Origin: an uncultured Bacilli bacterium
GTDB lineage: Bacteria > Bacillota_I > Bacilli_A > RF39 > UBA660
Direction: 5' to 3'
Assembly: GCA_910587725.1 (NCBI GenBank)
Contig: CAJUNG010000003.1
Location: 1 to 62,283 of the forward strand
DNA: 62,283 bases
Translations under genes and position numbers: made by a program
Shown: in pieces, positions 34,195-42,188 of the stretch
Position numbering within the stretch: the first letter of the stretch is position 1
Layout of the letters: the number at the start of each line of letters is the position of its first letter
Notes under the pieces: generated by a model
What the model saw: only the letters and a program-made list of their open reading frames with translations
Told to the model about the DNA's origin: nothing
The model's database searches: none

Positions 34195-35850
34195 TTAGTT
34201 TTCTTCTAAAATCACTTCTGGAGTAGTATATAAGAAACTATAGCATCCATTAGCATCTTTTTCGTTAATATCGGTATCCTTAATTTCACGCTCTACTCCA
34301 TAAAGAACATCTAAAGCATGAACAAATTTTAAAATTGCCGCTTTATCTTTCGCATTGACACGGAAACTCTTATGATTATCAGTAAATGTAAAATGGTCAT
34401 AATCAATTTTAGAAGCAATGACATAGTTATAAGGGTCATTGGTATCTTCTCCAACATTAGAATATAAATTAAGTAATATTGGATGACCATCCTTTTTATC
34501 TTCGACAAGGAAATACTCACTAAACGATTGTTTTGTCGGGTTCGTATCATTATTATTACGAACTACAGCATAAATTAAGCTAGGATAAGTCTTAATAAAG
34601 GAATCAATCGTTTCTTTAGAAATCACTTCTTCTGAATAAACCATTGGTAAGCTTTTCAAGAACACATTCATCATTCCTGCTCTAGTACCAAAAGAAATGC
34701 GTACTTGATGACGTTGCTTATTATAAGCGTAGTCAAAGATTGTATCACTAACCATACTATACATCATATTTGTATCTGTCTCATTCACTGAAGTAATTCC
34801 TGGAATTTCTCTTAAATTTCCTTGACTATCTGGGAAAATCATATAAGAAACTCCAGTTCCATCAAAAGATTTTACATAAGTGATAACAAGTTCTGAAAGT
34901 CTTTTCGCATCTGCACTCGAATAATTCTTTAAATACATTTTATTCAAATAATATTCAAAAGCAAACTCTAATTCCTCTTTATCTTTAGTCTTAAAAAACT
35001 GAAAACTAAAGAGTGTCTTTGTATAAGCATTCGCATAATTTTCTAAATTCTCACTAATCGAATAAACATAAGCATCATTATCTTCATCATACTCAACGCG
35101 AATTCCTGGCAATTTTAACTGTTGAACACTTTCCTTATTTCCTTCAATGACCATACTTTTCACGAAAGATAGAATTGTATCTTTTGAATTCGTTCCTTGA
35201 GAATAAGCAGTAATCCAGTTCATAAAGGTTTGATAGAAATTACCGTCATTCGCAGGAATCGATAAAATATTCGATACTTCATTCGGTTTTTTCTTATAAA
35301 TATTCGCTAGATATACAGAATGAGAAAGACGGAAGTTTTGTGTAGTATAAAGGAATTTCTCCTCTTCATCAACTTTCTCATAAATAGAAACATCAAAATT
35401 AATCCATACATGTCCATATTCATCTTCAACTAATAAATCTTCGACATTACAACTAAGTGCTGCTTTGGTTGTATTTTGATTTCCATCCGAATAAGTAACG
35501 GTATTATTTTTAACTTTTCCTAAAGAAGTAAGCGTAATTTTTTGACATTTAGGAATCACGACTTCATAGACATCTTCATGTTGAAAATCTCCAATCTCAT
35601 TTCTTGGGAAAGTAAACGATAACTGCATTACCTCTTCTGTTGATGCTTGATAGTTTGGTTTACTTAATGCAATTTGGTTTTCCTTATATAGCTTATATAC
35701 TCCCGTAGAAAATCCAAGAGCTCCTTCTTTTTGACTAAAGTATTTTGCTCGAGAAGGAACAAAACCAGCAAATGAGGCAACCACCACCAAGATTAAAAGC
35801 GTAAGAAATAAATAAAACTTTTTAGAATTTTGCCCTTTTCTTTTGAACAT
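34195..35850 (-). CDS. Secreted protein of the SipW/TasA-like locus (551 aa, no known domain)
   Basis: RBS AAAGGAGGGA. N-terminal K-rich n-region plus a hydrophobic segment ending ...SFAGFVPSRAKYFSQKEGALGF, the same motif class as the neighbouring subunits. Confidence 0.8.
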   Translation of the reverse strand: MFKRKGQNSKKFYLFLTLLILVVVASFAGFVPSRAKYFSQKEGALGFSTGVYKLYKENQIALSKPNYQASTEEVMQLSFTFPRNEIGDFQHEDVYEVVIPKCQKITLTSLGKVKNNTVTYSDGNQNTTKAALSCNVEDLLVEDEYGHVWINFDVSIYEKVDEEEKFLYTTQNFRLSHSVYLANIYKKKPNEVSNILSIPANDGNFYQTFMNWITAYSQGTNSKDTILSFVKSMVIEGNKESVQQLKLPGIRVEYDEDNDAYVYSISENLENYANAYTKTLFSFQFFKTKDKEELEFAFEYYLNKMYLKNYSSADAKRLSELVITYVKSFDGTGVSYMIFPDSQGNLREIPGITSVNETDTNMMYSMVSDTIFDYAYNKQRHQVRISFGTRAGMMNVFLKSLPMVYSEEVISKETIDSFIKTYPSLIYAVVRNNNDTNPTKQSFSEYFLVEDKKDGHPILLNLYSNVGEDTNDPYNYVIASKIDYDHFTFTDNHKSFRVNAKDKAAILKFVHALDVLYGVEREIKDTDINEKDANGCYSFLYTTPEVILEEN

Positions 35851-35867
35851 ACAAATCCCTCCTTTAA

Positions 35868-36389
35868 TTAATCTCTTTGCTCTGCTTTATAGCTAACTGA
35901 AACAACTGGTTCAGTATAAGTTTTTCCTGTATCTTCTCCTTGATACATAATGACTAAGTGATAATCCTTAACCTTACCCTCACCAGCAAAAACAATTTCT
36001 TCTGGTAGAGAATATTCATTTACCCCACTAGGAATCTTCATATCATTTAATGTGAGCATCTGAAAATCTTCTTGGACACGAATCACCAATTGAAAATCCG
36101 ACGTAACATCTAATTTTGAGGTATCTACAGAAAAGTCATATTCAATCTTACTATTCGGTCGAAACAATCCAGAGTTACAAACGTTATTGCTATTGACTTC
36201 TCCCTTACAGTTCTTAGGAAGAACAGCAACTTCGAAACTAGCAACCCGAGAATCACTCGCTTCTTCAAATCGAGAAATATAACGAGAATAAGTAACTACC
36301 GCCGTAAACAGTAACATCACTCCAACATACATCGTCAACCACCGATAAAAGCGACGCCTGAATTTTTGACTAAAAAATAGTTTTTTCAA
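35868..36389 (-). CDS. Small TasA/BsaA-class subunit-like protein (173 aa)
   Basis: TTG start 4 nt after GAGGT. The N-terminus ...TAVVTYSRYISRFEEASDSRVASFEV parallels TYARYTSTFTGTSSARVAKWAF of the 40287..40991 product. A small beta-rich body follows. Confidence 0.75.
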   Translation of the reverse strand: MKKLFFSQKFRRRFYRWLTMYVGVMLLFTAVVTYSRYISRFEEASDSRVASFEVAVLPKNCKGEVNSNNVCNSGLFRPNSKIEYDFSVDTSKLDVTSDFQLVIRVQEDFQMLTLNDMKIPSGVNEYSLPEEIVFAGEGKVKDYHLVIMYQGEDTGKTYTEPVVSVSYKAEQRD

Positions 36390-36396
36390 TCGAACC

Positions 36397-40281: not shown

Positions 40282-40286
40282 TTGGA

Positions 40287-40991
40287 TTAGTCAACTTGAG
40301 TAGCTACAATTGTTGCTGTTACTGTAGGTGTAGCAGTACCATCAAGACCTAAAGCAGTATCTGTCTCATCTGTTTGTGTATCTTTGAAAGTAGCACTTTC
40401 ATCTCCAATGAATGCCCATCTCCAATAAACAGTAAGACTTGCTTCTCCACCTTTGTTGAATGTTACTGTTTTAGTAGCTGTAGTCGTATCTTCAGTTGTA
40501 TCTCCTTCTTCAACAGTTTCTTCTCCTTCTGGGTCTGTTCCTTCTGGAAGTTCTGTTTCATCTTCTGTGAATGTTCCAGCAGCAAGTTCTTCAGCAGTCA
40601 AAGTGATTGTGCTTAAATCTCCCCAATTTTCTCCATCCATAGAGAATTCAATTGGAACACCAGCTAAATCACCATCTAAAGTAATGACTGCTTTAGCCGT
40701 AACTTCTGATAGGTTGGCAAGTTTAATTTCAAATTGTCCTTCTGTTCCTGGAGCAATGATGTTTTCGTTAATTCCTTTCGTAACGTTTTCATCATTGACA
40801 GATTCGAACAACTTAAAGTTAAGTGTCGTACCAGCCGTCTCTCCTCCGTCTAGATTAAAAGCCCATTTTGCAACTCTTGCACTAGAAGTCCCTGTAAATG
40901 TGCTAGTATATCTAGCATAAGTTCCACTAACAGAGTAAGCAGTAATTGCAACAGCAGCTACTAATCCAGTAAGTAATGTCATCCGTTTCAT
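40287..40991 (-). CDS. TasA/BsaA-class SipW-dependent fibre subunit-like protein (234 aa)
   Basis: ATG 40991 follows RBS GGAGGTGG at 4 nt (track ORF extends to 41042). Signal-like N-terminus is MKRMTLLTGLVAAVAITAYSVSGTYARYTS. Motifs IAPGTEGQFEIKLANLS and YWRWAF parallel TasA LKPGDKLTKDFQFENNGS. There is an acidic T/E-rich insert. Confidence 0.8.
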   Translation of the reverse strand: MKRMTLLTGLVAAVAITAYSVSGTYARYTSTFTGTSSARVAKWAFNLDGGETAGTTLNFKLFESVNDENVTKGINENIIAPGTEGQFEIKLANLSEVTAKAVITLDGDLAGVPIEFSMDGENWGDLSTITLTAEELAAGTFTEDETELPEGTDPEGEETVEEGDTTEDTTTATKTVTFNKGGEASLTVYWRWAFIGDESATFKDTQTDETDTALGLDGTATPTVTATIVATQVD

Positions 40992-41108
40992 ATTTCCACC
41001 TCCATTTGAATAGAATCGGATATTTTGTAGAAAGTATTTCACTTTCTAATTTATGTAAAACGCAAAAGTATAAATGGTTTGCGGTTTACCATTGTTCATC
41101 TGGCCAAA

Positions 41109-42188
41109 TTATCGTTTTTGATTTTGGTCTTGCAATTCTTTTAAGCGTCGTTGATATTCTTGATAAGCAAGAATTTCTTTTCTTCGCCGTTCTCTTTCTT
41201 CTTCGTATGCACTATCATAAGTTCTAGAACCCGCGTCTCGCGTCATTCTTTCTTGTTGTTCTTTCTCACGAGCAAGCATTTCTCTTCGTCTTAATAGTTC
41301 TGCTTGATTAATCTGCCCAGTTGCTTGTTTTTGTCGCATTTCTTCTTGTTGTTTTTGATAAGCAAGCATCTCTCTACGTTTTCTCAAAAGTTCTTGTTCT
41401 TCTGGAGAAAGGGATTCGAATTGTCTTTTTCTTTCTTCTAGAATTCTTCTTCTTTCCTCTTGCTGTCTTTGATACTCTAACTGTTCTCTACGAAGTCGTT
41501 CTTGTTCTCGAAGATATGCAATCTCCTCTTCATCTGGATAAGTAGAATGTGTTGAAGATGGTTTAGCATAAGTTGTACCTCCAGATTGAAAAGCCGCTTG
41601 TTCTTCTTCTCTTTGACGTTTATATTCTAAGAATTCTTTTCGTTCTGCTTCTTGTTGTTTTTTACTAGAAATGACAAAGGATATCACAAAAATCATCGTA
41701 ATTCCAACCCCGACCATCATAATTGTCGTCGGTTCTGCTAGACGATTCATTATCGTACCAATTCCTGGGATTCTTGTCATATAAAGTCCTTCTACATCTT
41801 CTATCGCAACAAGATTTTGGTCTTGAGAACTATTATTATCTCCCTTAGTAATAAAATAGGTTTGTCCATTACGAACGACGATATCGATAATTCTATGGGT
41901 TGTTACTGCATTTTCACTATCACGGAAAGCAATAACATCATCAATCTTTAATGTTGTCGGGTCAATCACTTTAGTAAGAATTAAATCTCCTCGTTTAATC
42001 TCTGTTTCCATCGAACCAGAAAGAACAATAAAAGGTTTAATTCCAAGAAAACTCGGAACTTTATCTTTATTTGTTTGTGCCTGGAATATAATGACTAAGT
42101 TTACAAATAAAGCAGAAAGTAATAAAACACAAACGATGATAAAAATGACATTGCCCACAGTATTTTTTTTCTTTTGTTTCTTTTCCAT
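41109..42188 (-). CDS. sipW: SipW-type (ER/archaeal-type, S26B) signal peptidase I with a 185-aa C-terminal R/E/Q-rich coiled-coil tail (paralog 1)
   Basis: RBS AAAGGGGAG. TM1, catalytic Ser in VLSGSMETE, His in TTHRI, TKGDNN and TM2 (IMMVGVGITMIFVISFVI). Residues 175-359 carry repeated (R/K)E(M/I/F)L(A/E)Y(Q/K) motifs. Confidence 0.85.
   Translation of the reverse strand: MEKKQKKKNTVGNVIFIIVCVLLLSALFVNLVIIFQAQTNKDKVPSFLGIKPFIVLSGSMETEIKRGDLILTKVIDPTTLKIDDVIAFRDSENAVTTHRIIDIVVRNGQTYFITKGDNNSSQDQNLVAIEDVEGLYMTRIPGIGTIMNRLAEPTTIMMVGVGITMIFVISFVISSKKQQEAERKEFLEYKRQREEEQAAFQSGGTTYAKPSSTHSTYPDEEEIAYLREQERLRREQLEYQRQQEERRRILEERKRQFESLSPEEQELLRKRREMLAYQKQQEEMRQKQATGQINQAELLRRREMLAREKEQQERMTRDAGSRTYDSAYEEERERRRKEILAYQEYQRRLKELQDQNQKR

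Follow-up and report, generated by a model that had tools for sequence, protein, structure and literature searches.

A six-gene locus with paired SipW-like signal peptidases and an unannotated family of secreted proteins in an uncultured Bacilli bacterium

A six-gene operon with two SipW-like peptidases

The stretch of DNA analysed here, referred to as the window, covers positions 1 to 62,283 of contig CAJUNG010000003.1 (GCA_910587725.1) from an uncultured Bacilli bacterium. Its minus strand carries, at 34195-42188, a locus of six co-directional genes encoding two signal peptidases related to SipW and four secreted proteins. In gene order, these are the peptidase SipWa, also named SipW1 (41109-42188, 359 aa), a small subunit (40287-40991, 234 aa counted from its ATG), a giant protein (37470-40193, 907 aa), the second peptidase SipWb, also named SipW2 (36397-37455, 352 aa), a mini-subunit with a TTG start (35868-36389, 173 aa) and a large secreted protein (34195-35850, 551 aa). 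The locus is probably one operon that serves an extracellular assembly, dependent on Sec and SipW and made of a protein family without earlier annotation, and the products of the locus very probably comprise a set of SipW-processed secreted proteins of one family.

The open reading frames (ORFs) of the window leave gaps of 117, 93, 14, 7 and 17 nt between the six genes, exactly as described (7-117 nt) in a first-pass annotation made from the sequence alone. The two terminators that this annotation placed around the block both fold as hairpins followed by T-runs. The upstream operon boundary is the intrinsic terminator of the ddl gene (42482..42510, minus strand, -12.8 kcal/mol, z -3.4), and the operon is ended, after the 551-aa gene, by a second intrinsic terminator (34143..34176, minus strand, -12.3 kcal/mol, z -2.0). 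A generic terminator scan detected neither; both were found by sequence reading and folding. Judged by spacing and terminators, the six genes form one operon.

Both peptidases exceed the curated cut-off (51.85 bits) of TIGR02228, the model of archaeal/endoplasmic reticulum (ER)-type signal peptidase I, with 93.1 bits for SipWa and 83.4 bits for SipWb, which bears out their first assignment as SipW-like S26B enzymes. On the basis of this model, the catalytic residues and hydropathy, the SipWa core (41658..42188, minus strand) is composed of a first transmembrane segment (TM1), an ER-type S26B catalytic domain with Ser59, His98 and Asp123, and a second transmembrane segment (TM2). The SipWb core (36964..37455, minus strand), which is also above the cut-offs of PF00717 and PF10502, has the same layout with Ser52, His90 and Asp111. 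Hydrophobic segments are found at residues 15-33 and 151-169 of SipWa and at residues 7-25 and 141-159 of SipWb. By the positive-inside rule, both proteins would be oriented with a K-rich N-terminus, TM1, a catalytic domain outside, TM2 and a cytoplasmic tail. The Ser-His-Asp residues correspond to the triad Ser47/His87/Asp106 of Bacillus subtilis SipW (PMC8767453) and not to the Ser-Lys dyad of P-type peptidases, and each of the three columns is invariant in an alignment of 142 SipW homologues from related loci. Because the scores for NF046067, the Bacillus SipW equivalog model, stay under its 190-bit cut-off (102.5 bits for SipWa, 68.6 bits for SipWb), both enzymes are SipW-like rather than orthologues of Bacillus SipW. 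They share 24% identity overall. An exact-sequence look-up of SipWa returned no record; a 99% twin was reached through the homologues P0001 and P0391.

The operon was compared with 80 related loci (L001-L080), 52 of which have enough flanking DNA to be counted as complete. The closest metagenome-assembled genomes (MAGs), namely L001, L002, L004, L011, L012, L014, L019 and L040, repeat the gene order sipWa, subunit, giant, sipWb, mini-subunit, large protein. More distant loci from Clostridia and Peptococcaceae display the order sipWa, subunit, second subunit-like gene, sipWb, third subunit-like gene and very large protein, and three subunit-like ORFs are present in 53 of the 80 loci. The two peptidases belong to two orthologous lineages, SipWa being always encoded immediately 5' of the major subunit gene and SipWb mid-operon. 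Exactly two sipW genes are found in 42 complete loci, three or more in two loci and a single one in eight. The pair that had first been presented as unusual is thus real but is the norm, and since 44 of the 52 loci carry at least two sipW genes, paired peptidases are a defining trait of the operon family and not a peculiarity of the window.

In another uncultured Bacilli MAG (L020:11287-12252, plus strand), a SipWb orthologue of 321 aa includes a third hydrophobic segment followed by a domain recognized by the subunit profile (A1 E 5e-7). This domain carries ...YSQYKKNFSG...ARIRT..., PGSTSKYYFGIKNS and an ...AEQID end, and the protein is an apparent peptidase-subunit fusion, or else reflects a missed stop or a frameshift.

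The secreted proteins and their relation to TasA and BsaA

The signal peptide of the 234-aa subunit (40914..40991, minus strand) ends in VSGTYA, with a predicted cleavage, probably at Ala26/Arg27, and with G23, T24 and Y28 invariant in the family. The mature major subunit (40290..40913, minus strand) is a β-sandwich according to the family alignment and an AlphaFold2 (AF2) model. The family alignment displays, in order, a type I signal peptide VSGTYA, KYTSxFTGxDxARVAKWAF, IAPGTxGSFxIxLxNxSEV, WRW, DTALG and a terminal strand ...TQVD. The conserved stretch runs ~20 residues beyond the predicted cleavage site, the first 20 mature residues being conserved at 0.73-0.75, like most of the core, and the PG motif at 0.81. 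In the AF2 model (predicted local distance difference test (pLDDT) 77.4, predicted template modelling score (pTM) 0.71), the N-terminal strand is confident, with values of 86 and 80 over the first two ten-residue blocks. A lineage-specific insert of ~50 residues (nt 40464-40613), acidic and rich in Glu, Thr and Asp (TAEELAAGTFTEDETELPEGTDPEGEETVEEGDTTEDTTTAT), is modelled as disordered and is missing from almost all of 120 aligned homologues.

This subunit represents a large family. A scan of the 234-aa protein against Pfam and NCBIfam gave no match at E<=1, neither the subunit sequence nor its profile retrieved anything from the PDB, and none of 72,556 plasmids was matched by the subunit in a tblastn search. 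A word-indexed search found at least 171 homologues at E<=1e-3, almost all of them unannotated metagenome proteins. An exhaustive profile search, counted as representatives of 50%-identity clusters, retrieved 7,917 at E<=1e-3, 4,279 at E<=1e-10 and 711 at E<=1e-30. The reference-genome loci of the family come from MAGs labelled uncultured Tenericutes, Bacilli, Clostridia, Oscillospiraceae, Peptococcaceae and others.

Two other proteins of the operon share parts of this domain. The N-terminal part of the 907-aa protein (38022..40193, minus strand) includes a signal/anchor helix, a conserved TSKFWG.IG motif and Ig-like domains, as deduced from Pfam and an orthologue alignment. A Cadherin-like β-sandwich domain at residues 305-381 (nt 39051-39281) is above the Pfam cut-off, and a weak Big_2 match is also present. 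The C-terminal domain (37473..38021, minus strand) is subunit-like, with PG.SG.Y...N.T, LLWRW, DT.IG and a final strand, and is devoid of an N-terminal donor-type strand. The family of this C-terminus aligns with the subunit family by hhalign at 91% (E 1e-6), with motifs in the same order, as against 0.8% for the reversed control. The first reading of a giant adhesin-like protein ending in a domain that repeats the subunit motifs is therefore borne out, over the last ~170 aa instead of ~200. In 28 of 29 giant-protein orthologues among the related loci, a lipobox-like ITSC precedes TSKF[WF]GKIG. In this N-terminal region (39960-40193 in the window), the window protein and its 99% twin display ATGI at the corresponding site and have zero Cys in the first 80 residues, and the lineage of the window seems to have switched its mode of anchoring.

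The 173-aa protein (35868..36389, minus strand) combines a basic N-region, a transmembrane segment, a TYS/RYIS...SRVASF strand and a reduced core (A1 hidden Markov model (HMM) E 8e-5). Its family aligns with the subunit family at 95% (E 4e-8) via the N-terminal strand TYSKYISx...ARVAKF, reversed controls remaining below 1%, and the label of mini-subunit given earlier stands. Its ...AEQRD end resembles the ...TQVD end of the subunit by our reading, in a part of the alignment with near-zero confidence. The cytoplasmic N-region MKxLLxSKxFRxNLxKW (window 36330-36389) is at least 70% conserved across 28 orthologues, which is unusual for a signal peptide. The TTG start is supported because orthologue N-termini conserve this region. 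In the twin contig (L081:6163-6627), the gene call begins 19 codons later (154 aa). The 551-aa protein (34195..35850, minus strand) carries a signal/cleavage motif PSRA/KYFS ahead of an otherwise unannotated body. It was rejected as a subunit, as hhalign detects only weak N-terminal similarity to the subunit family.

A cleavage motif [TS]-x-[AS]/[KR]-[YF] is common to all four substrates. It directly follows the hydrophobic segment and is kept in orthologues, the predicted sites being TYA/RY in the 234-aa protein, ITS/KF in the 907-aa protein, TYS/RY in the 173-aa protein and SRA/KY in the 551-aa protein. An aromatic P2' residue is reported as the feature that renders the TasA site ill-suited to cleavage by the LepB-type signal peptidase I (PMC10269814), which offers a rationale for dedicated peptidases. 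Two other types of surface structure were considered and rejected. A type IV pilin does not agree with the n-h-c type I signal layout, in which the motif comes after the hydrophobic segment, and TIGR04205 matches at chance level in only nine of 120 members (E>=0.03). As for a sortase pilus, no LP.[TSA]G motif occurs in any of the six proteins and the Pfam and NCBIfam scans gave no sortase family match.

The 234-aa protein had first been called a TasA/BsaA-like subunit. For the comparison with these families, the TasA query was verified against 8AUR and a 36-sequence TasA alignment (A3) was built, A1 and A2 being profiles of the subunit family. BsaA-family proteins from Enterococcus plasmids served as TIGR04090 comparators; they were found via a tblastn search of the 72,556 plasmids with SipWa, which returned otherwise generic S26B matches only. 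PF12389 (Peptidase_M73, the camelysin/TasA family) gave no match at E<=1 in any of the four secreted window proteins, is missing from the 25 most-matched families listed for 39 subunit-family members and was found in none of 10 divergent paralogues; the model itself works, all 120 TasA homologues listed carrying it. Likewise, TIGR04090, which scores 78-115 bits on the Enterococcus proteins, matched no window protein, is missing from the 25 most-matched families listed (down to single-member matches) for 120 members and was found in none of the 10 divergent paralogues. These paralogues thus provided no bridge to TasA/BsaA. TIGR04088, the SipW-cognate signal model, matched no window protein and only one of 120 members, weakly (E 0.022), although by eye G-T-[YF]-A-K-[YF] in the subunit family is similar to G-T-W-A-A-F in TasA.

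Against TasA, hhalign reaches 8% with A1, on only 10 columns at the cleavage motif, and 1.5% with A2, and the subunit profile against a single TasA sequence aligns the cleavage motif alone. Against BsaA, the values are 16-22% (E ~1e-3), a weak signal located at the cleavage motif or at the PG...N.G strands, for controls of 0.3% with a reversed profile and 96.8% for BsaA versus TasA. Two AF2 monomer models of the subunit, of moderate quality (pLDDT 69.5 and 77.4), gave no Foldseek match in the PDB at E<=1e-3, and TasA (8AUR, 5OF1) is not among the best 50 of ~1,000 weak matches. The top of these weak matches is made of generic β-sandwich/jelly-roll folds, carbohydrate-binding module (CBM)-like domains, a phage fibre, EcpA, BPSL1626 and FimG, and is not interpretable. 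The TasA/BsaA label thus fails with every family model run (PF12389, TIGR04090, TIGR04088) and in the hhalign comparison with TasA. By these tests, the subunit family belongs to neither PF12389 nor TIGR04090 as defined, and it is far more distant from TasA than BsaA is, which reaches 96.8% by the same method.

A very remote common origin with the TasA/BsaA superfamily is possible. The subunit family would then be a very divergent, homologous third branch, and the earlier class label would be correct at superfamily level, a reading somewhat less probable than its contrary. What resembles those families is limited to the motif at the cleavage site and to a single PG...N.[GS] strand pair. By eye, GTYAKYTS in the subunit family is near-identical to STYAWFTS in the BsaA family, GGTWAAFND being the form of TasA, and in the first two the strand pair PG....x.x.N.[GS] comes next; exactly these regions are those selected by hhalign, at a value well over that of the reversed control. 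A C-terminal ...ATQ... strand motif may also be read, by our reading, in both TasA and the subunit family. Most of the 2,172 members of the BsaA superfamily are themselves reported to be outside Pfam M73 and highly divergent (PMC11580942). The absence of TIGR04090 matches, the single weak TIGR04088 match, the lack of bridging paralogues, the distance from the BsaA-TasA positive control and the absence of TasA from the 50 best Foldseek matches nevertheless speak against homology. Mature position 1 of the 234-aa protein is Arg and not Lys, and Lys42 is not invariant; the intermolecular N-E-K isopeptide triad characterizes a subset of the BsaA family. The best-supported reading is a SipW-dependent extracellular assembly analogous to TasA/BsaA, with a subunit family that is new or has diverged extremely far.

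Cytoplasmic tails of the peptidases and setting of the locus

After TM2, SipWa extends over 182 residues (41112..41657, minus strand) and SipWb over 188 residues (36400..36963, minus strand), as compared with the ~185-190 first noted. Both tails are predicted to be cytoplasmic, in agreement with the earlier proposal and with the topology given above. In an independent contig (L081, 99.0% DNA identity), the ORFs measure 359, 234, 907 and 352 aa as in the window, a 359-aa protein 99% identical to SipWa is encoded on a JGI contig, and both tails stay in frame in three assemblies. Because the same lengths recur in independent assemblies, the tails are not artefacts, and the frameshift or assembly error considered in the first-pass annotation is ruled out.

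The two tails differ in composition. The tail of SipWa is E/R/Q-rich and carries one canonical EFLEYKR (residues 185-191, nt 41616-41636) alongside some five degenerate versions (IAYLREQ, LEYQRQQ, LAYQKQQ, LAREKEQ and LAYQEYQ), the surrounding sequence being nearly neutral in charge. That of SipWb begins with a degenerate juxtamembrane motif (EEEAFYEFKEQKK; degenerate copy AFYEFKEQKK) and continues with at least eight consecutive heptads having Tyr at position a and L/V/I mostly at d (nt 36595-36762), the 7-residue periodicity of Tyr being significant by permutation (p<2e-4). A 21-nt tandem repeat underlies each tail, at 41422-41469 for SipWa and at 36683-36722 for SipWb. The description of the tails as coiled-coil-like is fair for SipWb.

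The sole conserved part of the tails is a stretch of ~10-15 aa of the EF[L]EY[KQ][KR] type, placed directly after TM2 in both paralogue lineages, with SNKKQRELERQEFLEYKR as the SipWa form and DKDGxPILTEEEKEYQEFLEYQK as the SipWb form. A regular expression of this motif matches 30 of 30 close SipWa and 12 of 23 close SipWb sequences, for four of 665 background ORFs. The tails had been called unrelated to each other; indeed no alignment is found between them, but the same type of motif follows TM2 in both lineages. Long tails are often multi-copy for the EFLEYKR unit, with about six copies in P0496 and three or four in P0400, P0405, L012 and L019, and repeated EFLEYKRMKEQ units are visible in P0496, P0400 and P0405.

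Outside this motif, little is kept. Searches by phmmer with either tail against the 80 related loci gave no matches. Orthologue tails measure between ~20 and 230 aa (median 46 aa in the SipWa clade and 70 aa in the SipWb clade), and tails of at least 150 aa are found in only two of 30 SipWa and two of 23 SipWb orthologues. Their compositions are unrelated and of low complexity, being rich in Asn/Tyr, Lys/Ser/Thr or Glu. Between two near-identical copies of SipWa, four of the five substitutions are located in the tail. The survey of homologues longer than 300 aa called for by the first-pass annotation found 14 among the 120 closest database homologues of SipWa (~12%), but except for the 99% twin, the alignment generally ends at ~53-55% query coverage, with a maximum of 69%.

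The first-pass annotation proposed that each long tail could serve as a scaffolding or signalling module, with cleavage coupled to fibre assembly. On this reading, the tails would be coiled-coil or single-helix scaffolds that oligomerise the peptidases or recruit a cytoplasmic partner and thereby couple cleavage to assembly or gene regulation. This proposal is weakened by tail length and composition that vary among close orthologues, by mostly short orthologue tails without detectable homology to each other, by the early stop of the alignments, by the substitutions accumulated in the SipWa twin and by 21-nt repeats indicating slippage-type expansion, and it is now improbable, even if the clean heptads of SipWb, the maintenance of both frames in three assemblies and a juxtamembrane motif kept in both paralogues and multiplied in long tails fit it. 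A peptidase-independent role of B. subtilis SipW, mentioned in that annotation, does require the cytoplasmic C-terminal 20 residues of the protein (PMC8767453, summarising Terra et al. 2012). The juxtamembrane helix is a plausible counterpart of these 20 residues. The tails, predicted to be cytoplasmic, are real and unusually long here, and it is fairly probable that the short EFLEYKR-type juxtamembrane helix motif is their conserved functional unit. With a similar likelihood, the rest is low-complexity sequence, lengthened by tandem copying of 21-nt (7-aa) units and quick to turn over. A literature search found no published description of paired or long-tailed SipW genes.

Other extensions were seen among homologues. 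The tails of the SipWa homologues P0425 and P0435 (286-288 aa) end in a Rho_N/SAP-like helix-extended-helix motif (MTMAELKVLAKKQGVKGYSTMRKDELIKKL, PF07498), and P0482 (347 aa) has a Lys/Ser/Thr/Ala-rich tail that is histone H1-like. Such ends suggest nucleic acid or ribosome binding, which would suit the tails as functional modules; as a lead only, they suggest polyanion binding by the cytoplasmic tail in some lineages. In Ruthenibacterium lactatiformans (L008:699-2285, plus strand), a SipWa homologue of 528 aa displays an extension of ~310 residues N-terminal to TM1 and no C-terminal tail.

The locus is bordered by ddl/murF upstream of the block and by a 223-aa ORF and priA downstream. Its GC content (0.31-0.36) is no different from the remainder of the window, and since its base composition matches, it looks like ordinary chromosomal DNA. 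A promoter-like site TTGACA-17-TATCCT with TG (42400..42428, minus strand) is located ~210 nt upstream of sipWa. It is weak and stands as a candidate only, because the promoter scan counts as many such sites in the region as expected from shuffling. An Rfam scan found zero families inside the six-gene locus; elsewhere in the window, a T-box leader (10948-11173, minus strand, 136.5 bits) and a 6S RNA (20148-20335, minus strand, 69.6 bits) are present.

Proposed assembly, known systems and significance

Donor-strand exchange is described for the SipW-associated TasA and BsaA, with several paralogues per operon (PMC9674648, PMC11580942). By analogy, the freed N-terminal strand of one subunit could, after cleavage, insert into the β-sandwich of the next one, leading to a fibre or matrix polymer. 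The 234-aa protein would be the shaft and the 907-aa protein an acceptor-only end piece, serving as a tip adhesin or, in relatives where it is a lipoprotein, as a membrane-proximal base. Minor, adaptor or nucleator roles would fall to the 173-aa and 551-aa proteins, and the two peptidases might each process some of the substrates or work jointly. We infer donor-strand polymerisation from the conserved post-cleavage strand, the strand-bearing mini-subunit, the acceptor-only domain, the several paralogues per operon and the SipW-linked precedent. A donor-strand fibre is a tentative reading, with chances slightly below even.

Several points weigh against it and against the assembly system as a whole. 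Polymerisation itself is deduced indirectly, and no significant Foldseek link was found to TasA or to any solved donor-strand pilin, the best pilin matches being EcpA (E 0.037) and BPSL1626 (E 0.055) with a template modelling (TM) score of ~0.3. As the profile links are below threshold, the basis of the TasA/BsaA analogy is the genomic context, the signal motif and the general class of fold. A split of the substrates is purely conjectural because the four cleavage motifs fall into no obvious two-class pattern. The 907-aa protein of the window is without the lipobox Cys of 28 of its 29 orthologues, the 551-aa protein shares only the signal region with the subunit family (hhalign 19%, weak, N-terminal), and the operon itself is judged by spacing and terminators.

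Part of this evidence would also fit SipW-processed surface or matrix proteins acting without strand-exchange polymerisation, as adhesins, coat or enzyme-like binding modules, with the N-terminal stretch serving as a recognition or sorting element. The missing structural match to donor-strand fibre subunits, the generic β-sandwich/jelly-roll and CBM-like folds that head the weak Foldseek matches, the N-terminal strand confidently docked in the monomer model and the adhesin-type Ig domains of the 907-aa protein are all in line with this alternative. Yet a conserved stretch of ~20 residues past the cleavage site is longer than peptidase recognition needs, and at least three paralogues of a small β-sandwich per operon, along with an acceptor-only domain and a strand-keeping mini-subunit, are typical of heteropolymeric fibres. 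Moreover, all the characterised SipW-linked systems (TasA, CalY, BsaA) are polymers, and the non-polymeric alternative is rather unlikely.

Compared with known systems, a polymer-forming operon would be closest in logic to those served by SipW. As in tapA-sipW-tasA of B. subtilis, a dedicated ER-type SipW is encoded beside its substrates, a major subunit is accompanied by accessory secreted proteins, and the signal peptide ends in G-T-[WY]-A with an aromatic P2' as in TasA. In B. subtilis SipW, a short cytoplasmic C-terminus exerts its own function. The B. subtilis system has one peptidase with a tail of ~20 aa, whereas here two peptidases bear tails of 182 and 188 residues. The subunit here is outside the PF12389/TasA family (hhalign 8%, no Foldseek match), no TapA (TIGR04087) homologue is present, and the locus encodes a 907-aa protein with a terminal subunit-like domain. 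The B. cereus operon sipW-tasA-calY (camelysin, Peptidase_M73) is also SipW-linked with two or more paralogous fibre subunits, but has one peptidase, PF12389 subunits and no giant protein with a terminal subunit domain.

The sipW-bsaA-bsaB-bsaC locus of Clostridium perfringens and the TIGR04090 loci (e.g., L084 and L085) resemble the operon in that sipW comes first and is followed by a number of small β-sandwich paralogues and one large adhesin-like protein. In the BsaA family, for which donor-strand exchange is proposed, a near-identical cleavage motif is followed by the PG...N.G strand pair. The differences are that none of 120 subunit-family members is among the TIGR04090 matches listed, that hhalign stays at 16-22%, that no von Willebrand factor A (VWA) protein, LPXTG protein or sortase is encoded here and that a second, orthologously conserved sipW lies mid-operon. 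The BsaA-family loci of Enterococcus megaplasmids (L085:3697-6546 and L084:5863-10142) contain extended SipW-type peptidases of 266 and 315 aa, and in the E. raffinosus BsaA locus, a second, lepB-type peptidase is found ~1.4 kb upstream with LPXTG-type proteins nearby. The three textbook loci may understate how common extra peptidases and extensions are in SipW systems.

More distant systems offer an analogy at most. Chaperone-usher pili follow a comparable FimH/FimG/FimA logic, with a large adhesin having a donor-strand-less pilin-like C-terminal domain, small adaptors and a major shaft subunit. However, the organism here is of Gram-positive type, chaperone and usher genes are missing and the Foldseek values (E 0.04-0.2, TM score ~0.3) are not significant. 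Archaeal TasA-like and donor-strand filaments (Abp bundling pili, threads and cannulae) share Sec export, an archaeal/ER-type signal peptidase I and strand donation, but no sequence or structure link with the subunit family was found, and none is among the Foldseek matches listed.

A bolder and quite speculative proposal is that the operon family constitutes a new widespread class of Gram-positive surface fibres in uncultured gut Firmicutes, with a subunit fold family that lacks any solved or annotated relative, assembled by a heteromeric pair of ER-type peptidases. The EFLEYKR-type repeats, and the Lys-rich or Rho_N/SAP-like tails of relatives, would tether a cytoplasmic partner (ribosome, nucleic acid or the basic N-region of the mini-subunit precursor), so that the sequence in which cleavage proceeds would dictate that of donor-strand assembly.

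For protein scaffolds of Gram-positive biofilms, the reference model is provided by SipW-dependent fibres (TasA, CalY, BsaA). The same logic is found here with a subunit family covered by no Pfam, NCBIfam or PDB entry, though it numbers ~4,300 clusters at E<=1e-10. Its members occur mainly in uncultured gut Bacilli ('Tenericutes'-labelled MAGs) and Clostridia. The tails, as the least conserved part, matter less than first proposed, and in the juxtamembrane motif there is a concrete candidate for the cytoplasmic, peptidase-independent function known from B. subtilis SipW. Two conserved peptidases per operon provide a tractable route to substrate order and specificity in chaperone-free strand-exchange assembly. 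If these proteins form fibres, they would represent a major unrecognised surface structure of gut commensals.

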